A stretch of 64,000 nt of DNA from an uncultured Desulfobacterales bacterium (GTDB lineage Bacteria > Desulfobacterota > DSM-4660 > Desulfatiglandales > JALVZP01): assembly GCA_964513995.1 (NCBI GenBank), contig CAZEOQ010000007.1:6891-70890 (forward strand). Reading direction: 5' to 3'. Below, one piece after another: positions 2,135 through 64,000 of the stretch; position 1 is the first letter of the stretch; every line of letters begins with the position of its first letter. Made by a program: the position numbers and the translations under genes. The notes under the pieces are model-generated. The model had not been told where the DNA came from. It saw only the letters and a list, made by a program, of their open reading frames with translations, and ran no database searches.

Positions 2135-3683
2135 TCCAGTAGTATTTTGGATACTCTTTTTTTCTGCATCTTTTCATTGTTTCTGGAAGAAAGTCTGAAA
2201 TGTCTTTTGCTGTAATTCCATCTTCTCCTTTTTCTGAAGCTGCTATATCTCCTGAAAATCCATGTATGAATACTCCCATCCTTACAGAATCCTGAAAAGA
2301 CATTCCCTGACCAAAAAGTGCAGAAATCGTTCCTGTAAGGACATCACCAGAACCTGCTGTTGCCATACCAGGATTTCCTGTCATATTTATAAAGATCCTT
2401 CCAGAAGGAGTTCCTATAAGGGAATGTGCTCCTTTAAGGACTATTATTGCTTTAAGTTCTTTGCATGTATCTTTCAGGATCTCTATCTTTTTCAGATCTA
2501 TTTCAGAAACAGTCTTTTTTGTTATCCTTGACATCTCTCCTGGATGTGGAGTAAGAACTGTTTCTGCCTTCCTGTTTTTGACTACAGAAAGATCTTTTGA
2601 TATAGCTGTAAGACCATCACCGTCTATCAGTATAGGTTTTTCTATCTTTTCTACAAGCTCCATTACAAGCCTTTGTGTCTCTTCATTAAGAGAAAGACCA
2701 GGTCCAATTACTACCATGTCCACTCTTTCTGAAAGCTGAAGGAGTCTTTCTTTATTCTCTAAGGAAAGAGTCCCTTCTTTTGTTTCAGCCTGTGGATGAA
2801 ATACTATTTCTGGACCTAATGTTGCTATATATGGTGCAACAGACTGTGGACATGCAAGCCTGCTATATCCTCCTCCTGCTTTAAGAAATGAATAGGATGA
2901 AAGGAATGGTGCTCCAAAATAGTTTCTTGCCCCTGCAATAAAAAGCACTTCTCCAAATGTTCCTTTATGTCCTGTCTTTATCCTTTCTGGAATAGGAATC
3001 GGCTCATTTATCTCACACATTATACTTTCATCTTCATAAAGTGATGGAGGAAATGAGATATGTGTTACATAAAGCTTGCCACAGAGTTCATATCCTGGAT
3101 AAAGTATGTTTCCAATCTTTGGAAGACCAAAAGTTATCGTAAGATTTGCTTTTACAGCAATTCCCATAACTTTTCCTGTATCTCCTGAGACACCAGATGG
3201 AATGTCTATGCTTACAACATATTTTCCACTTTCATTTATAGCCCTTATTACATCTCTGTATATTCCTTCTACTTCTCTTGAAAGCCCTGTCCCAAATATT
3301 GCATCTATTATAACATCACATCCCTTGATCTCATCTTTTATGTCATCAACAAATGAAACTTTCTTTACTGAGATAGGCAATCTCTTTATTATCTCAAGAT
3401 TCATTCTTGCTGCACCTTTAAACTTTTCTGGATCACCGATAATAAAAATCCTTACATCTGAACCATTTGAGTGAATTTTTCTTGCAACAACAAATCCATC
3501 TCCTCCATTGTTTCCTATTCCACAAAATACAGCAAATCTTTTCCTTATATCCTTCAGTTCACTTAATATTGCAAAATATGAAGCCTGTCCTGCATTTTCC
3601 ATAAGTATCTCTTCTTTTATTCCAAATTCATCTGAAGCCCTTTTATCTAACCTCCTCATCTCTTCTACATTACAAACCTTCAT
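2127..3683 (-). CDS. nnr: Bifunctional NAD(P)H-hydrate epimerase/dehydratase (YjeF/Nnr)
   Basis: LMENAG, GNNGGDG, DAIFGTG, HKGTFG, LTPHPGE and GMATAGSGDVLTG motifs. Start ATG 3683 follows AGGAGG. Confidence 0.93.
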   Translation of the reverse strand: MKVCNVEEMRRLDKRASDEFGIKEEILMENAGQASYFAILSELKDIRKRFAVFCGIGNNGGDGFVVARKIHSNGSDVRIFIIGDPEKFKGAARMNLEIIKRLPISVKKVSFVDDIKDEIKGCDVIIDAIFGTGLSREVEGIYRDVIRAINESGKYVVSIDIPSGVSGDTGKVMGIAVKANLTITFGLPKIGNILYPGYELCGKLYVTHISFPPSLYEDESIMCEINEPIPIPERIKTGHKGTFGEVLFIAGARNYFGAPFLSSYSFLKAGGGYSRLACPQSVAPYIATLGPEIVFHPQAETKEGTLSLENKERLLQLSERVDMVVIGPGLSLNEETQRLVMELVEKIEKPILIDGDGLTAISKDLSVVKNRKAETVLTPHPGEMSRITKKTVSEIDLKKIEILKDTCKELKAIIVLKGAHSLIGTPSGRIFINMTGNPGMATAGSGDVLTGTISALFGQGMSFQDSVRMGVFIHGFSGDIAASEKGEDGITAKDISDFLPETMKRCRKKEYPKYYWII

Positions 3684-6093: not shown

Positions 6094-6933
6094 TTATTCA
6101 GGTTCAAGACTTATAATCTTTGCTACTTTTTTTTCTAACTTCCCTACCTCTTCCACAATAATGTCCACATATTTCCTGTTAGGGTCTTCTTTTGGCATTT
6201 TTTTACTCAATCTTCTTGCAAATCCTCCTATAACCGTAAGAGAATTTCTGAGTTCATGAGCAACCCTGTTTGCCATCTTTCCCATTGCAGCGTGTCTTTC
6301 CATTTCTAAAAGTTTTCTATGTGTTTCTTCAAGCTGCCTAGTCCTTTCTTTTACTTTTTTTTCAAGCTCCTGCTGAGATATATATACCTCATCATAAAGC
6401 TGAGATATTTTTATAGCTATCCCTATCTCATTGGCAACTATATATATTGCATCGCTGTATCTTACATGAAAATAGTTTTTCCTTTTTGAAGCAGTTACCA
6501 AAATTCCTATTACTTTATCTTCTACCATTATAGGGGTAAAGGCAAAAGAGTTCATCGTATTTGGAACTATAAGGTGATCTTTATCCTGTATCTCGTCTAT
6601 GTCATTCACAATTACTATCCTTTTTTTTTCAAAACATCTGATTGCATATGGATCTTTAAGTTGTCGGTTTTCTATCTTTTCTATAAATCCTTTTTCTAAC
6701 CCAACACAGCTTTCTACTTTTACATGATTATTTGTGCTTATAAGGAGTATTGCACAAAGATCAAATTTATATTCTTTTATGAGGAGTCTGATGATCCCTT
6801 CTAAGACATTTTGAAGATGAAGGTGTGATGAAACAAGTTTTGTTATTTCAAATAATATTCTTAACTTCTTCCTGTTTTCTTTATACTTCCTTTCTAATTC
6901 ATCAATCTGGCTTAAGAGGCTTTTAAATACCAT
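6094..6933 (-). CDS. GAF + HisKA (DHp) protein lacking the HATPase domain
   Basis: GAF-like region (FTPIMVEDKVIGIL), coiled coil and H-box AHELRNSLTVIGGFARRL; protein ends about 40 aa later with no N/G1/G2 boxes. Confidence 0.8.
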   Translation of the reverse strand: MVFKSLLSQIDELERKYKENRKKLRILFEITKLVSSHLHLQNVLEGIIRLLIKEYKFDLCAILLISTNNHVKVESCVGLEKGFIEKIENRQLKDPYAIRCFEKKRIVIVNDIDEIQDKDHLIVPNTMNSFAFTPIMVEDKVIGILVTASKRKNYFHVRYSDAIYIVANEIGIAIKISQLYDEVYISQQELEKKVKERTRQLEETHRKLLEMERHAAMGKMANRVAHELRNSLTVIGGFARRLSKKMPKEDPNRKYVDIIVEEVGKLEKKVAKIISLEPE

Positions 6934-57757: not shown

Positions 57758-58924
57758 TTAGATAATTTCTTTTATTATCTCAGTTACATCCTTTATTTCT
57801 ATAAATCCCTCACCATATTTTTCTTCAAGTGTCTTTCTGCTGTCCTCAAGCATTGTAATACAGTATGGACAGAATGTTGCTATGACCTCTGCTCCAACCT
57901 GAACAGCCTGCTCTATCCTTATGTCAGAAAACCTTTCTCCTTTCCTCGTCTCCATCCATACCCTTCCTCCTCCACCTCCACAGCAAAGACTGTTTTCTCT
58001 TGATTCTGGAAGTTCAACAAACTCAATTCCTGGAATCATCTTGAGAATCTCTCTTGGTTCATCAAATATTCCGTTATGTCTTCCAAGATAGCATGGATCG
58101 TGATATGTAACCTTCTTTTTGTATTCCTTCTGTATCTTTATTCTTCCTTCTTTTAAAAGCCTTAAAAGCAGTTGTGACATGTGTATTACTTCAAAATTTA
58201 CGCTGAATTCTGGATATTCATTCTTAAATGTATGATAACAGTGAGGAGAGCTTACAATGATCTTTTTTACGCCACTGTCAATAAATGTCTTTATGTTTTC
58301 TTTTGCAAGCTTTCTGAAAAGCTCCTCATCTCCAGTCTTCCTTATACTTTCTCCACAGCAGTTTTCCTTTTCTCCAAGTATCCCAAAACTTACTCCTGCT
58401 TTATTTAGGATCTCAACTGTTGCCCTTGCTATTTTCTTTCCTCTTGGATCATAACACGGATAGCAGCACGGAAAATAAAGATATTCTGTCTGTTCTGTAA
58501 ATTCATTTACAGGAAGACCTTCAGCCCATTTTTTCCTTTCACTCCTTTTTTCACCAAGAGGATTTCCTTCAGCAACAAGACTTCCACTTGCTGTTTTTAC
58601 TGGCTGAACAGGCTCAGGAAATATTCCATATTCTGTAGCAACACTTCTAAGAAGCTTTACGACCTCTATCTGATTTACCTGTCTCGGACACTGAATCGTG
58701 CATCTTCCACAAGTTGTGCACCTCCATATATCTTCACTTTCAACCTCTGTAAGTCCAAATGTTGCCTGTCTTATTATCTTCCTCATACTGAACTGGATCA
58801 CCTTGTTCCATGGACATACAGAATCACAAAGACCACACTGAAAACATAGTCTAAAAGGTTCACCACCTTTTTCCCTAATAAGATCTACTATTTCCTTATA
58901 TTCTTCAAGTATTATAGCTTCCAC
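57758..58924 (-). CDS. bamD: BamD: HdrC/HdrD-like Fe-S protein with CCG domains
   Basis: CFQCGLCDSVCP, CTTCGRCTIQCP, ENCCG, YHDPCYLGRHN, CCGGGGG, CPYC; lies between bamC and bamE. Confidence 0.87.
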   Translation of the reverse strand: MEAIILEEYKEIVDLIREKGGEPFRLCFQCGLCDSVCPWNKVIQFSMRKIIRQATFGLTEVESEDIWRCTTCGRCTIQCPRQVNQIEVVKLLRSVATEYGIFPEPVQPVKTASGSLVAEGNPLGEKRSERKKWAEGLPVNEFTEQTEYLYFPCCYPCYDPRGKKIARATVEILNKAGVSFGILGEKENCCGESIRKTGDEELFRKLAKENIKTFIDSGVKKIIVSSPHCYHTFKNEYPEFSVNFEVIHMSQLLLRLLKEGRIKIQKEYKKKVTYHDPCYLGRHNGIFDEPREILKMIPGIEFVELPESRENSLCCGGGGGRVWMETRKGERFSDIRIEQAVQVGAEVIATFCPYCITMLEDSRKTLEEKYGEGFIEIKDVTEIIKEII

Positions 58925-58936
58925 CTTTCCCTCTCC

Positions 58937-59512
58937 TTATTTTCTAATTTCTTGTGCTTTCTTTGCTGTTGCCATCTGTATCACCATATCCACGACTTTG
59001 TCAAAACCAAATCTGTCTGCAAGTGCATTAAGTCCTACCTCAAGTTCATTCTCCTTTGGAGGCTCTTCTTCTACTTCCTCTTCCCTTTCTTCATATGTAA
59101 GTGCATCTACAAGACAGACCTGAACACACCAGGGTTCTTCAAGAGGGGGCTCATTCTCACATACATCACACTTTAAAGGAAGTCCTGAATCTGGATCCTT
59201 AAAAAGGTCTCTTGCAGGACATGCTGCACCACAGAAGCTACATACCACATAATCCTTTCCATATACACTCTGCATCTCTCCGTTTGCTATGTATATGCTC
59301 CTTCCTTCACATTCTGCCTTTGTATAAAATGTTGCACGAACAGGAACAAATACATTTCTCTGATCATCCCTAAATACCCTTATACGAGACTTTGAAGGAT
59401 TTACACTGCTGTATTTTGGATTTGCATGGAATGCAGAGCATGCAACCTCACATGCTCTACACCCCATGCATTTGTCAAGATCCATCTTTATTATCTTTAT
59501 CTTCCTTTTCAT
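58937..59512 (-). CDS. bamC: BamC: [4Fe-4S] ferredoxin-like subunit
   Basis: CMGCRACEVACSAFHANPKYSSVNP.KSRI...CSFCGAACP.RDLFKDPDSGLPLKCDVC...CVQVC; ATGA overlap with bamB. Confidence 0.9.
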   Translation of the reverse strand: MKRKIKIIKMDLDKCMGCRACEVACSAFHANPKYSSVNPSKSRIRVFRDDQRNVFVPVRATFYTKAECEGRSIYIANGEMQSVYGKDYVVCSFCGAACPARDLFKDPDSGLPLKCDVCENEPPLEEPWCVQVCLVDALTYEEREEEVEEEPPKENELEVGLNALADRFGFDKVVDMVIQMATAKKAQEIRK

Positions 59513-61497
59513 GACTTCTCTCCTTGTGCTTGATCTTCTTTCAGAATACCTCTTTTTACAAAGTCCTCATATACATATCCCAGATTTAGCTTCTCAAGTG
59601 TCTCTTTTGTAGGAATTCCATCCTTGTTCCATCCTCTGTATTTGTAATACTCATCCATAAGCTTTTCTTCATATTCAGGAAATCTCTTCTTCCAGTGATC
59701 TTCTGGTGGTTTGTCATCCTTCCTTCTCAGACCTCTTCTTACATTTATACACCTTACGAGATTCCTTACCCTTGTTGCTATTGTCCAAAGCTTGTCTTCA
59801 TCCATCTTAAGTCCTGATGCAGCTTCTATTATAAGTGGAAGATTGTGGATGTGATATGGTGGTTTGAGTGGGAATGAGGAAAGTCCTGCACAGATTCCAG
59901 TGCAGTCGTCAATATAGTGCATGATCTCCTGCCATTCTACAAGCTCACATACAAGGTCTGGTGGAGGATAATATGGGAATGTATAGCCTTCATCTCCCCA
60001 TTTCAGTATAAATTCCTTAAATCTTTCTTCCTTTCCAGTAGGAATCTGTATCCAGTCCTTTACAAATTCCTCTCTTATCTTTTTTGGAAGAGGTGCCTGT
60101 GGGATCTGTCCTTCAATCTGTGTTATGTTTATCTTTTCTCCTGTTGCCCACATAAGGAAGTAGATTGGATTTAGCATTCCAAGTTTTATTGGAACCTGCT
60201 CATGCTTCTTTATAGTATTGTGATCAAACTTTTCTGCTCCTCTTCCAATCTCTCTTGCTGCCCAGTATACTCCTTTTGCGAGAACATCTCCTATCCCTTC
60301 TCTTTTTACAACCTTTTCAAGAAGATAAATGAATCTTTCTTTGTTGTCTTTTGGAAAGTTTGGAAGATCTTTGTCAGTAAGGATTCCATTTTCATAAAGC
60401 TCTATTGCAAATGCAAGGACCTGTGGTGTCGTAAATCCATCAAGTCCGTAGTGCTGTGCAAGACCTGCACACTTAAGTCCAAACTCAAGATCATCAACCA
60501 TTGCAGCCATTGTATATGTAAGCTTTGTAAAGCATTTCATTACATATACAGGAACACCTGGAAGCTCAAGTATTGCAGAACATGCAACAGGACAGTTATA
60601 ACAGGCTATAAGGCGTTTTCTTGCATTCTCAAGTGTTCTCGTCCACTTTTCTTCTATCTCCTTTGTCCAGAATCCTTTCCTCCTTATCCTTGCATTTCCC
60701 CATGCAAAGCTTTCTGTATGCCATTTTTCATCGTGAAGTCTCATCTCCTGAGGTGATCCAATGTATGCAAGGATTCCTGGAATTCCTGGAAGAGGATTCT
60801 TGAGACGGTAGTCTATAAATTTCAGGACCTCTTTGTTAAGTTCCATAAGCCTTTCACCATCAGCAACATTCACATCCCTTGTTCCACGAACAGCTATTGC
60901 CTTAAGGTTCTTGTCTCCCATAATAGCGCCAAGACCAAGTCTGCTTGCACTGCTTTTTGAGCTTTCAATAGACGCAAAATAGACCCTGTTTTCTCCAGCA
61001 AGACCTATTGCAAGAACCTGTGCATCTGGCTGATTCAGCTCCTGCTGTATAGCTCTTATTGTCTCATATGTGCTTTTTCCTTTAAGGTGTGTTGCATCAC
61101 GTATCTCTACCTTGTCATCATGTATCCAGAGATAGACGAGCTTTGGTGCTTTTCCACGAATAATTATCTTATCATATCCAGCATGCTTTAGCTCTGGCGC
61201 CCAGAATCCTCCCATCATAGAGAATCCCATAAGGAGTGTCTGTGGGGAGATGGAAGAGATAATAGTTCTGTTTGCTCCTATGACTGGTGTTCCGCAAAGA
61301 AGACCTGCACTAAATATAAGAACATTATCTTCAGAAAATGGCTCTACTTCAGGAGGAACTCTGTCCCAAAGTATCTTTGCATTTGTTCCAAGTCCGCCAA
61401 GATAAAGTTCTGTATCCTGTGGATCTGTAGGGACTTTTTCAATGTTTCCTGTAGAAAGATCTATCTCTAAATTATATCCTGTCTCTGCGTATCTCAT
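59509..61497 (-). CDS. bamB: BamB: tungstopterin catalytic subunit of class II benzoyl-CoA reductase (AOR family)
   Basis: MRYAETGYNLEIDL...TELYLGGLGTNAKILWDRVPPEVEPFS; BamB-type motifs GSPQEMRLHDEKWHTE, CYNCPVAC, MKCFTKL (W-ligating Cys), TQIEGQ, GLSSFPLKPPYHIHN match my recollection of Geobacter BamB. Start ATG 61497 after GAGGTGG. Confidence 0.92.
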   Translation of the reverse strand: MRYAETGYNLEIDLSTGNIEKVPTDPQDTELYLGGLGTNAKILWDRVPPEVEPFSEDNVLIFSAGLLCGTPVIGANRTIISSISPQTLLMGFSMMGGFWAPELKHAGYDKIIIRGKAPKLVYLWIHDDKVEIRDATHLKGKSTYETIRAIQQELNQPDAQVLAIGLAGENRVYFASIESSKSSASRLGLGAIMGDKNLKAIAVRGTRDVNVADGERLMELNKEVLKFIDYRLKNPLPGIPGILAYIGSPQEMRLHDEKWHTESFAWGNARIRRKGFWTKEIEEKWTRTLENARKRLIACYNCPVACSAILELPGVPVYVMKCFTKLTYTMAAMVDDLEFGLKCAGLAQHYGLDGFTTPQVLAFAIELYENGILTDKDLPNFPKDNKERFIYLLEKVVKREGIGDVLAKGVYWAAREIGRGAEKFDHNTIKKHEQVPIKLGMLNPIYFLMWATGEKINITQIEGQIPQAPLPKKIREEFVKDWIQIPTGKEERFKEFILKWGDEGYTFPYYPPPDLVCELVEWQEIMHYIDDCTGICAGLSSFPLKPPYHIHNLPLIIEAASGLKMDEDKLWTIATRVRNLVRCINVRRGLRRKDDKPPEDHWKKRFPEYEEKLMDEYYKYRGWNKDGIPTKETLEKLNLGYVYEDFVKRGILKEDQAQGEKS

Positions 61498-61523
61498 AAC
61501 TCCACCTCTCTCAAAATAGTTCA

Positions 61524-61557
61524 ATGTTATATAAATCAAACATCTTTTTTCTGTCAA
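61524..61557 (-). promoter_or_regulatory. Candidate sigma70 promoter of bamB
   Basis: TTGACA (61557-61552), 18 nt, TATATA (61533-61528); short inverted repeat ATGTT-N10-AACAT (61524-61543) overlaps the -10. Confidence 0.5.
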
Positions 61558-61994
61558 GAAAGTCTTTTTTCAAGGTTTATAAAATCACTCCTGTCAAAGC
61601 CAACTGTTTTGAAAAATGAAAGAATATCAACTGAATCCCATCTTACTGATGTATAAAGAAACTTTATCCCTTTTTCTTTACATATCTCAAAAAGCACACT
61701 TGCAAGACTTCTTCCTATTCCCTGCCCCATATATCTCGGATCTACTCCAAAATTTGCAATCCATGCACCCCTGTCAACTCCAAATCCACCATATATGATG
61801 TAGCTTATCATATATCCGACTATCTTCCCGTTCAGCTCAGCAACGAGAGCAATAATATCAGAAGAGTCCTTTATTACATTGCTGAAGTCTGTTTTTATCC
61901 TGTGCTTAGTTATAGCCTGTTCAATCCTTTCAATCTCTTTTATGTCTTCCTTTTTGGCTTCTCTTATAGAAATCTTCTTCTTTAACTCTTCCAT
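61554..61994 (-). CDS. GNAT family acyl-CoA-binding protein
   Basis: IREAKKED, LVAELNGKIVGY, motif A FGVDPRYMGQGIGRSL, FFKTVGF. Confidence 0.9.
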   Translation of the reverse strand: MEELKKKISIREAKKEDIKEIERIEQAITKHRIKTDFSNVIKDSSDIIALVAELNGKIVGYMISYIIYGGFGVDRGAWIANFGVDPRYMGQGIGRSLASVLFEICKEKGIKFLYTSVRWDSVDILSFFKTVGFDRSDFINLEKRLS

Positions 61995-62180
61995 CTAATC
62001 TATCCTGATTATCTTTACTCTGTGTCCTATCCAGTCAGGAGGAAGATATACACGACCACTGTTTCCACTCTGTTTTACGACTTTTTCCACCATCTCCTCT
62101 CCATATACCTCAAACTTTACCTTTTCTCTGGATTTATTCTCTGTCTTTTTCTCTCCTTTTAGAGACTTTTTTCTTGGCAT
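61995..62180 (-). CDS. DUF2080-like small protein (probable AbrB/MazE-type swapped-hairpin DNA binder)
   Basis: FEVYGEEMVEKVVKQSGNSGRVYLPPDWIGHRVKIIR; its stop directly abuts the GNAT ATG. Confidence 0.8.
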   Translation of the reverse strand: MPRKKSLKGEKKTENKSREKVKFEVYGEEMVEKVVKQSGNSGRVYLPPDWIGHRVKIIRID

Positions 62181-62194
62181 ACAGCTTTTTCCAA

Positions 62195-62236
62195 AATTTT
62201 TAGCTAAAAATTAGCTACAAAATAACTACATGTCAA
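62195..62236 (-). promoter_or_regulatory. Sigma70 promoter of the DUF2080-GNAT pair with phased repeats
   Basis: TTGACA (62236-62231), 17 nt, TAATTT (62213-62208); TA(G/A)CTA repeats at 62201, 62212 and 62223; perfect palindrome AATTTTTAGCTAAAAATT at 62195-62212. Confidence 0.65.
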
Positions 62237-62345
62237 GAAAAAAGTAAACTGAGATTGTTCGAAAGATAAAAAGACAAAACTTGAACTGGAGGGAGGTTTT
62301 AGAATTATATCAGAAGCATTTTTTCGAATAGCCTTCCAAACCTAC

Positions 62346-62374
62346 TTGACAATCTTAAAAAAATCCTTTATCAT
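62346..62374 (+). promoter_or_regulatory. Near-consensus sigma70 promoter upstream of the hairpin RNA and NYN gene
   Basis: TTGACA (62346-62351), 17 nt, TATCAT (62369-62374). Confidence 0.75.
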
Positions 62375-62380
62375 TAAAAT

Positions 62381-62460
62381 AGGAAATTTTAAGTACTACT
62401 ACACTTCCTCCTGGGGCATTCTCCTTATCCACAACCCTTCCCCCAGGAGTCATTTTTTAT
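62381..62460 (+). ncRNA. Candidate leader/small RNA: 9-bp GC stem, 24-nt G-free loop, U-tract
   Basis: CTCCTGGGG (62408-62416) pairs with CCCCAGGAG (62441-62449); loop CATTCTCCTTATCCACAACCCTTC; followed by TCATTTTTTATT immediately before the NYN ATG. Confidence 0.5.
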
Positions 62461-62464
62461 TAAG

Positions 62465-63106
62465 ATGATCTACAAAGTAGCTCTTCTCATAGATTGGGAT
62501 AACATTAGATACAGAATTTTTAAAAACAGAAACCTTTTGAGAAAAGACACTCCAAGGTTTTCGTATTTTAAACATACAACCAAATTACCAGCCTTTTTTC
62601 TTAATTTTTTGGAGGAAGAAGAAAGACCTTACCGAATCTTTTTTTATCTTTCAGAAGGATACAGGGGTAAAGTAAAAGATCCAGAAGGGAAAGAGAGAGA
62701 TTTTTCTGAAACAGAAGAAGCTAGAGCAATGGGAAAGTTTATAAATACTCTTTCCATACTGGATCTGGTTGCAATAAGAAAGGGAAGGACAGCGTTTAGA
62801 GGATGGAAGCATGAAAATGGAAAATATGTTCCTATATTTGTCCAGAAAAAGGTGGATATTCTTTTAGCACTAGATATAGCTCATCTAACTTACAATAAGC
62901 TTGTGGATCGTATTCTGATCTTTAGTTATGATACAGACCTGCAACCTGCTCTTAAAACAGCACGAATTGGTGGAATTCAAGTCATTCTTCCTTTTTTTAA
63001 AGAAATGAAATGGGAAGATATTCCTTTGGAATTAAAAGCTCATTGTGATTTTATCAGAATAAAAAGTTATCACGAGATATGTTGTAAATTACTAAAGAAT
63101 GAGTAA
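62465..63106 (+). CDS. NYN (LabA/DUF88-like PIN-fold) ribonuclease
   Basis: Acidic catalytic motifs LLIDWDN, QKKVDILLALD and SYDTDL intact; L.AHCDF tail. Confidence 0.88.
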   Translation: MIYKVALLIDWDNIRYRIFKNRNLLRKDTPRFSYFKHTTKLPAFFLNFLEEEERPYRIFFYLSEGYRGKVKDPEGKERDFSETEEARAMGKFINTLSILDLVAIRKGRTAFRGWKHENGKYVPIFVQKKVDILLALDIAHLTYNKLVDRILIFSYDTDLQPALKTARIGGIQVILPFFKEMKWEDIPLELKAHCDFIRIKSYHEICCKLLKNE

Positions 63107-63211: not shown

Positions 63212-63240
63212 TTGACACAGGATATAATATTCCCTAAATT
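63212..63240 (+). promoter_or_regulatory. Sigma70 promoter of fusA
   Basis: TTGACA (63212-63217), 17 nt, TAAATT (63235-63240), 10 nt before the ATG. Confidence 0.6.
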
Positions 63241-63250
63241 TTTTAGCAGT

Positions 63251-64000
63251 ATGAAAGGTTTGTCTTATCTGAAAAAGATAAGGAACATAGGGATAATAGC
63301 ACATATAGACGCAGGAAAGACTACTGTTACAGAAAGGATGCTTTATTATACAGGAAAAGTTCACAAGATGGGAGAGGTGCATGATGGTGAAGCAACAATG
63401 GACTGGATGCTTGAAGAGAAGGAAAGAGGAATAACGATTACATCTGCATGCACGACATGTCACTGGAAGGGATTTAGCATAAATATTATTGATACACCTG
63501 GTCATGTTGATTTTACTATAGAAGTGGAAAGATCATTAAGAGTCCTTGATGGTGCAATAGGTGTATTTTGTGCAGTAGGTGGAGTTGAACCACAGTCTGA
63601 AACTGTCTGGCATCAGGCAGACAGATACCGCGTTCCAAAGATAGCATTTGTAAACAAGATGGATAGAATTGGAGCAGATTTTTTCCGTGTCGTGGAGATG
63701 ATGAAAGAAAGACTTGGTGCACGCCCTCTTATCCTTCAGATCCCATGGGGAGCTGAAAGTGATTTTAAGGGAGTAATAGATCTTATAAAGCAGAAGGCTA
63801 TTATATGGGATGAGGAGTCACTTGGAGCTCGTTATGAAGAGATACCTATTCCTGAAGATATGAAAGACATAGCAAAGGAGTATAGGGAACTTCTTTTTGA
63901 AACTGTCTCAGAAGTGGATGATAAGATCCTTGAAAAGTATCTTTCTGAAGAAGAGATAACAGAGAAAGAACTGAAATCTGCTATAAGAAAGGCAACAATA
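63251..64000 (+). CDS. fusA: Elongation factor G; stand-alone copy, runs off the right window edge
   Basis: Manual translation from ATG 63251: [35 protein letters not shown]...ERGITITSA...[21 protein letters not shown]...[10 protein letters not shown]...NKMD. Confidence 0.95.

Follow-up and report, generated by a model that had tools for sequence, protein, structure and literature searches.

The locus described here occupies positions 62346-63106 of a stretch of 64,000 nucleotides (nt), referred to below as the window, which covers positions 6,891 to 70,890 of contig CAZEOQ010000007.1 (assembly GCA_964513995.1) from an uncultured Desulfobacterales bacterium. The locus can be read as a self-contained unit of a promoter, a leader RNA of about 80 nt and a gene for a stand-alone NYN protein (LabA-type, PIN-like). 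The combination of the leader with this rare gene suggests, as judged from sequence comparison, an uncatalogued RNA-nuclease pair that is present in several phyla, on plasmids and in proviruses. The features of the unit, in window coordinates, are as follows.

62346..62374, + strand: sigma-70-like promoter with -35 hexamer TTGACA (62346-62351), 17-nt spacer and -10 hexamer TATCAT (62369-62374)
~62381, + strand: putative transcription start, placed by promoter geometry about 7 nt past the -10 hexamer
62396..62457, + strand: match to covariance model R1 (described below), 38.3 bits, E 2.1e-5; the window is among the seeds of R1
62401..62407, + strand: ACACTTC, the flank motif directly adjoining the 5' arm on its 5' side; first copy of a weak internal direct repeat
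62408..62416, + strand: hairpin 5' arm, CTCCTGGGG, about 34 nt beyond the -10 hexamer
62417..62440, + strand: loop of 24 nt with zero G
62431..62440, + strand: 3' end of the loop, ACAACCCTTC; copy 2 of the flank motif
62441..62449, + strand: hairpin 3' arm, CCCCAGGAG, containing AGGAG at 62445-62449
62450..62461, + strand: U-rich, terminator-like tail, TCATTTTTTATT, as read from the sequence
62465..63106, + strand: gene for the stand-alone NYN (LabA-type) nuclease of 213 amino acids (aa), with its ATG at 62465

Features of the window locus

An original prediction for this DNA had named a near-consensus promoter, a perfect 9-bp GC stem, and a 24-nt G-free loop and U-tract ahead of the NYN gene. 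The promoter matches the consensus at 11 of 12 positions (TTGACA-17-TATCAT), and the loop and the U-tract can be read directly in the sequence. The stem is indeed perfect over 9 base pairs (bp), but it is not all-GC, being composed of seven G-C and two U-A pairs. Dinucleotide shuffling of the 123 nt upstream produced a stem of this quality in 2 of 300 trials. With transcription starting at about 62381, the leader RNA would measure 78-81 nt. No tandem repeat array was found in 62346-62464, which holds one hairpin unit. The hairpin is located in a divergent spacer, downstream of its own promoter-like site, and it cannot terminate any upstream gene, since the genes upstream of the NYN gene (57758-62180) are all on the opposite strand. 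When the region from the hairpin to the start was scanned, the AGGAG of the 3' arm, 15 nt ahead of the ATG, was the sole word resembling a Shine-Dalgarno (SD) sequence. None lies between the hairpin and the ATG, in agreement with the predicted lack of an SD before the NYN gene.

Two other readings of this leader were rejected. A 40-aa open reading frame (ORF) at 62346-62468 was considered as a leader peptide; it begins within the -35 box, and the deduced RNA has no ATG, GTG or TTG before the loop. Sequestration of the AGGAG of the 3' arm as an SD is confined to the clade of the window, the purine-rich arm of other clades being the 5' arm.

Conservation, covariation and gene linkage of the hairpin

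The homologue set comprised 106 loci (designated by L numbers) and three viral loci, the organisms being mostly metagenome-assembled genomes (MAGs). Homologue loci were recovered in the contig search by an alignment query; a single-protein query recovered none. Covariance model R1 was seeded with a MAFFT alignment of 21 sequences, including the window, which was not fitted to any structure, and was used to scan both strands of the window and of 97 of the 106 loci (nine duplicates left out), a total of 520 kb.

The stem co-varies. An 11-pair stem in the MAFFT alignment has 81.0% paired cells, compared with 68.3 +/- 1.8 in shuffles, and nine of its 11 pairs show changes on both sides. The covariation score of 0.386 (0.184 in shuffles) was reached by none of 500 shuffles. 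Sliding the partner by one to three columns lowers all covariation measures, and a model-fitted alignment agrees with the MAFFT alignment on covariation. Among the 25 pairs predicted for a Campylobacterota set of 12 sequences, 17 show compensatory change.

At E <0.01 R1 gave 26 matches, all on the strand of the NYN gene and immediately before its start; 21 are seeds and five are non-seed loci (L107, L078, L114, L021 and L087). The matches in L107 and L021 seemed displaced, and were found to abut the true N-terminal fragment of a NYN gene split by an insertion. R1 also matches two of the three viral-contig loci. The window site is the only match with E <1 in the 1.74-Mb host genome, the other reported match having E 3.33, and three further genomes yielded one match each, at the NYN gene. 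The gene is present in two of 61 genomes (that of the window and 60 relatives), and R1 matches the same two genomes in the same place. Eight loci with distant NYN paralogues, taken from a phylum sample, gave no R1 match; at one of them, L139, a two-helix hairpin with a U-rich tail is visible by eye.

Rfam 15 produced no match at the window leader at E up to 10, and none at the leader in 44 locus scans (20 at the gathering score, 16 at E up to 1 and 8 at E up to 0.1). A RAGATH-18 near-match in L115 (33.8 bits versus 44.9) was discarded as unrelated to the leader, as it lies within an insertion that breaks the NYN gene.

A conserved, co-varying hairpin is located at the 5' end of the NYN transcript and is strictly linked to the gene. 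The covariation, the strict linkage and the lack of an Rfam match uphold the earlier proposal of a nuclease-associated RNA outside the described families. The homologue alignment and stem covariation check that the proposal had called for found the promoter, the large-loop hairpin and the U-rich tail recurring before the NYN clade.

Variation among homologue loci

The clade of the window, as far as upstream DNA is available, comprises five loci including the window itself. Each of the four closest loci (L067, L084, L070 and L046; protein identity 58-68%) has a TTGACA-type site, a perfect stem of 9-10 bp, a loop of 19-28 nt that is poor in G, and a run of five or more T. The arms differ among these four (ACCCCTGGGG/CCCCAGGGGT, CCCCTTGGGG/CCCCAAGGGG, CCTTGGGGC/GCCCCAAGG and CCCCTGGAGC/GCTCCAGGGG), and their stems were matched in 0, 0, 1 and 0 of 300 shuffles. 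In homologues of about 40-50% identity, which come from MAGs labelled Nitrospirota, Deltaproteobacteria, Pseudomonadota and others, the stems are GGGGGGC/GCCCCCC or GGGAGGC/GCCTCCC, frequently with a second inner helix. In the Campylobacterota homologues the hairpin is longer and has three helices, and its apical loop is conserved around CUAAUCC. No such element was recognised by eye at the loci of Methanocaldococcus, Muiribacteria, several Helicobacter species, Omnitrophota and some Nitrospirae.

Two local arrangements were recorded. At four Aquificota-type loci (L012, L013, L073 and L090) the hairpin ends 5-6 nt before a conserved KKVA N-terminus; no canonical start codon follows the hairpin, and three of the four have an in-frame TTG or ATG inside the loop. 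In L064, from a Brevinematales MAG, positions 2863-2977 hold two exact 45-nt copies of the whole hairpin unit, 70 nt apart, surrounded by additional TAAATCC words.

Transcription and translation signals across the class

At 16 of 26 R1 loci the 90 nt upstream of the element contain a sigma-70-like site with 10 or more of 12 matches, compared with 0 of 25 control segments inside coding regions, and its -10 hexamer mostly ends 11-30 nt before the start of the R1 model. The stem is followed within 12 nt by a T-run of at least 4 at 23 of 25 loci and ends 9-61 nt before the start codon (25 loci). Between hairpin and start no SD-like word is found in 15 of the 25, so the missing SD of the window is a trait of the class.

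Many homologues (L067, L084, L077, L075, L080, L023 and others) are preceded, in the -10 position or close to it, by the word CCGATAA or CCGATAT, which appears to resemble the -10 element of sigma-28 (flagellar) promoters. Pairing of the loop with an SD, which would block translation, was also considered and rejected, as it could be fitted by eye in Helicobacter pylori and one Campylobacter locus and not in the others.

A repeated, locus-specific motif

At many loci a stretch of 5-10 nt immediately preceding the 5' arm is repeated in front of the 3' arm, as the 3' end of the loop, and a third copy sometimes stands directly after the 3' arm. Examples are AAACAC, AAATCCC, AAATAC, CAATCCGA and ACAACCC. 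The longest word common to flank and loop end has a mean length of 5.19 nt within the same locus, compared with 3.75 between loci and 3.66 +/- 0.18 in shuffled sequences (maximum 4.23), and a common word of at least 5 nt is present in 14 of 26 loci. In most loci the copies begin 8-10 nt ahead of their own arm. The spacing between copies is variable (22-38 nt) and the distance to each arm is fixed, a combination which fits an RNA hairpin and not duplex DNA. No reverse complement of the motif was found nearby. A direct repeat that stands 5' of each arm has the two-fold symmetry of an RNA helix and not that of duplex DNA; a dimeric RNA-binding protein would meet such a pseudo-symmetric layout of motif and arm. 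Where proteins share about 50% identity over the first 75 residues, the loci have different motifs, with all copies changed together. A motif that varies between loci and is identical among the copies of one locus points to a partner that travels with the locus.

The NYN protein

The 213-aa product matches Pfam NYN (PF01936) over residues 4-196 (E 2.7e-8, 34.9 bits versus a cut-off of 24.2). Its AlphaFold model has a mean predicted local distance difference test (pLDDT) score of 95, and the top structures retrieved with Foldseek are 2qip (E 4.5e-7), followed by the MARF1 NYN structures 6fdl and 5yaa. The alignment to the core domain takes in about half of the query (TM-score 0.51 relative to query length). 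Among 32 homologues D137, D156 and D158 are invariant, and D10 is conserved in at least 90%; by analogy these four residues would form the metal-binding or active site. The protein is, on the predicted model, an intact NYN fold. The earlier description as a catalytically intact NYN ribonuclease (RNase) holds for the fold and the conserved acidic residues, and for the active site by analogy only. The homodimer prediction scored 0.19, the mark being 0.42.

The gene is single-copy in the host genome. The subfamily is small, with 667 matches at E<=0.001, 162 at E<=1e-10 and 12 at E<=1e-30 among 1.84 billion representative proteins. One PHROGs family, functionally unannotated, is matched. A scan of the defence library PADLOC gave a single weak match, HEC-09 (E 0.0047), an NYN candidate defence gene which is reported to give no protection against the phages tried (10.1101/2024.01.29.577857).

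Genomic context and mobility

No conserved neighbour was found beside the homologues, and no CRISPR genes appeared among the neighbours examined (102 flanking ORFs at 22 loci). Some homologue loci adjoin transposases, an integrase with a CI-like repressor, restriction-modification or Dnd genes, or type II antitoxins. Homologues occur on 44 plasmid records, 36 of which are typed as conjugative. Plasmid pHELV-1 of Campylobacter helveticus carries the gene beside RelBE and an AbiEii-family gene, and pHel5 of H. pylori carries it near ParA, in both cases with a hairpin that has an AAUCC loop; on conjugative plasmids of C. jejuni the homologue stands between a SNF2-related gene and the relaxase region. 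Three viral (proviral) contigs contain homologues, and phage records contain distant relatives only.

Several copies are interrupted. Transposase-like ORFs follow NYN residue 86 in L046. In L115 (1215-1500) the NYN match stops after residue 119, and the inserted DNA carries the sub-threshold RAGATH-18 match mentioned above; RNAs of RAGATH-18 type are reported to accompany IS607 TnpB nucleases (PMC11061315). Insertions split the NYN gene in L107 (2034-2405) and L021 (around 2790-3140), the leader hairpin being kept before the N-terminal fragment in both, and the insert of L107 has a 123-aa ORF on the opposite strand. In L111 the gene is split into two frames.

In the window, the nearest upstream gene is divergent and encodes a 61-aa 'transposase-associated' protein of DUF2080/AbrB type (NCBIfam E 1.3e-20), whose MazE-like Pfam match is below the cut-off (E 0.068). 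Together with the lack of a conserved neighbour beside the homologues, this agrees with the predicted absence of an adjoining protein antitoxin. On the minus strand at 61554-62180 the DUF2080 protein is followed by a 146-aa GNAT acetyltransferase, upstream of an ORF resembling aldehyde:ferredoxin oxidoreductase; the small AbrB-like protein and the GNAT protein are, from their sequences, a possible pair in the style of a toxin-antitoxin (TA) system. The start of the DUF2080 gene is spanned by a 26-nt inverted repeat at 62165-62245 (81% complementary, 29 nt apart), which contains an 11-nt tandem repeat at 62200-62230 and gives spurious microRNA-family matches on both strands, far under the gathering scores.

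Downstream, 63212-64000 contains an EF-G-like gene with its own TTGACA-17-TAAATT site (10 of 12 matches) and no evident SD before the ATG at 63251. Relatives in the family have two EF-G-like genes, with about 80% and about 55% identity to the copy in the window. Definition of an insertion by synteny was abandoned: the upstream neighbours of the EF-G-like gene differ in two family relatives, and there was no clean empty site. An argument for transfer from G+C content was dropped as well, the difference between the NYN gene (0.33-0.36) and its neighbours (0.38-0.43) being too small. In L093 a c-di-GMP-I riboswitch (2795-2878) scores 47 bits, the gathering score being 35; the Campylobacterota NYN homologue of this locus is about 0.9 kb upstream of it.

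Function of the leader

The reading preferred here, to which we give an even chance on the sequence evidence, is that the cognate leader keeps NYN expression low and is recognised by the NYN protein itself, as a feedback. Most transcripts would end at the hairpin and U-tract and yield a short leader RNA. Translation of read-through mRNA would be poor, since the 15 nt that separate the stem from the ATG contain no SD. The NYN protein would bind or cut two half-sites, each consisting of motif plus arm; as the two-fold symmetry of the RNA helix relates these half-sites to each other, it might do so as a dimer. An unstructured loop of 24 nt makes a poor terminator unless something holds it, as a bound protein would; binding would then stabilise the large-loop terminator, or cutting would destabilise the mRNA, and the nuclease would in this way limit its own synthesis.

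The sequence of the window is weak evidence when taken by itself; comparison among loci gives strong evidence. The promoter alone is not unusual, as the 64-kb window has two sites with at most one mismatch versus 0.88 expected, and the 81-nt leader has an ordinary fold energy (z -1.49), equalled by 11 of 200 shuffles. Several observations weigh against the feedback reading or against the place of the window in it. A consensus terminator scan called no terminator at the window hairpin because the loop exceeds 8 nt: the G+C-rich stem and the U-tract are present, but a loop of 24 nt, versus 3-8 nt, is atypical of intrinsic terminators. The flank/loop repeat is weak in the window, where ACA and CTTC are common to both copies and the longest shared word is 4 nt. 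RNAalifold, applied to the five loci of the window clade, found compensatory change in two of nine pairs and a covariation term of +0.48, which is no net support. The R1 score of the window is by construction, because the window is among the seeds; model R2, built from the 16 R1 seed sequences outside its clade, misses the hairpins of the window and its four closest relatives with default filters and also with filters off and E up to 10. The tie of the window to the larger class is consequently one of position and architecture, not of a model match. At the H. pylori, Wolinella and some of the Campylobacter loci the stem is shorter, the loop contains UAAUCC or UAUUCC and there is no U-tract, so termination cannot be a function common to all. 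That the NYN protein is the one which reads the motif is pure inference from sequence.

The results do not separate the antitoxin, guide and autoregulatory roles that had been proposed for the RNA. The guide role found no support, the RNA being single-copy and strictly cis-linked, and the role as an autoregulatory target would appear, from the sequences, to fit at least as well as that of an RNA antitoxin.

Loci of toxIN type (toxIN, cptIN and tenpIN) consist of a promoter, a non-coding RNA, a terminator-like hairpin and an endoribonuclease gene, the antitoxin being an array of 34-40-nt repeats. A mechanism of this kind, as in type III TA and abortive-infection loci, would have an abundant terminated leader inhibit a toxic NYN protein, and a stop in transcription would free the nuclease through decay of the RNA. 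The likeness extends to the gene order, to the presence of a single protein with no conserved neighbour and to the carriage on plasmids, with pHELV-1, pHel5 and the 36 conjugative records among them, and in prophage-like DNA, including the three viral contigs. The patchy distribution (two of 61 related genomes), the interrupted or split copies (L046, L115, L107, L021 and L111), the duplication of the whole element in L064, which places the RNA unit twice in tandem, and a locus-specific motif that suggests cognate pairs point in the same direction. Against these stand the nature of the protein, which is a NYN/PIN-like and not a ToxN-, CptN- or TenpN-type toxin by Pfam and fold search, and the single hairpin of the window in place of a repeat array; the module departs from type III TA in these two defining features, toxin family and array. 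The RNA is, moreover, so close to the start codon (9-61 nt), where it often replaces the SD, that it is more like a cis leader, and the copies of H. pylori type are without a terminator. Where a type III locus has its terminator, between RNA and toxin gene, the window has the stem, the U-tract and the 24-nt loop, and the scan calls none. On balance we consider a type III-like mechanism rather unlikely. Its fullest form is equally doubtful: the leader would be the antitoxin of a toxic, homodimeric PIN-like NYN protein held on the pseudo-two-fold hairpin through the motif 5' of each arm, and the module would represent a new class of RNA-protein TA or abortive-infection system on plasmids and proviruses across Campylobacterota, Aquificota, Nitrospirota and Desulfobacterota.

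The leader could respond to something other than the NYN protein: it might be an RNA thermometer, a riboswitch, an attenuator that acts constitutively, or the site of a different RNA-binding protein. Bacteria commonly have structured leaders with terminators, a hairpin with a U-tract is present at 23 of 25 loci, and some lineages have elaborate two- or three-helix versions with conserved apical loops, all of which would suit such a role. The element, however, stands only before this NYN family, in unrelated contexts and on mobile DNA, which makes a shared host factor or metabolite less likely. The motif pattern argues for a partner travelling with the locus. In the window clade the loops lack structure and vary too much to form a ligand pocket. 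We regard a role of this kind, independent of the NYN protein, as distinctly improbable.

A DNA-level operator for a transcription factor or a chance hairpin in an AT-rich spacer would be in keeping with the non-significance of the window promoter match and leader fold energy taken alone and with the nearly self-palindromic CCCCWGGGG-like arms of the window clade, but is very improbable, given that the arms of other clades are not self-palindromic and pair mutually (e.g. TTCGGGGGGC with GCCCCCCGAA), that the stem co-varies, that the direct repeat, with its copies 5' of the two arms on one strand, has the symmetry of a hairpin and not of duplex DNA, and that stems of such quality are rare in shuffles.

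Comparison with described systems

Autoregulatory leaders are known for nucleases, among them the rne 5' untranslated region and the rnc and rny transcripts, and the NYN/PIN-like Regnase-1 targets a stem-loop of its own mRNA. The autoregulation of RNase E and RNase Y has been described (PMC11321048, PMC10303841). Like these leaders, the present element is conserved and structured, is part of the transcript of the nuclease itself and is strictly linked to the gene. It differs in that those enzymes are housekeeping or well-studied ones and the NYN gene is a rare accessory gene, and in carrying a terminator-like tail and a repeated locus-specific motif.

With the LabA-like NYN proteins (PF01936, group NYN.COG1432, 2qip) the protein shares the Pfam match, the NYN fold and the conserved acidic residues, but it belongs to a small separate subfamily and aligns to the core domain over about half its length. 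In a 2017 classification of the PIN superfamily, bacterial LabA-type NYN proteins are given as numerous and of unknown function (PMC5499597). The CRISPR-associated NYN protein of Bacteroides fragilis is described as a Mn2+-dependent single-strand RNase acting on a cognate small RNA (PMC11346440). It, too, is a prokaryotic NYN protein; it differs in cutting without sequence specificity and in belonging to a type III CRISPR locus.

Intrinsic terminators and promoter-proximal attenuators share with the element a G+C-rich stem and, behind it, a U-tract, the whole standing immediately downstream of a promoter. The loop of 12-28 nt, versus the usual 3-8 nt, the conserved single-stranded motifs and the lineages without a U-tract set the element apart. 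A literature search, outside which most subscription journals lay, found no paper on an RNA element before NYN genes. In kind, we regard the element as the structured leader, or the RNA partner, of a ribonuclease gene; its RNA class appears to be uncatalogued.

Significance

The leader element is a candidate for a new Rfam family. A small NYN clade with its own conserved RNA provides a concrete candidate substrate or partner, in a simple test system of one gene and about 80 nt. If the RNA is an inhibitor, a new nuclease fold would be added to the RNA-antitoxin systems, which would account for the occurrence of the module on plasmids, including those of Campylobacter and Helicobacter, and in proviruses. 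If it is an autoregulatory target, the leader would show the sequence and structure that this nuclease recognises.

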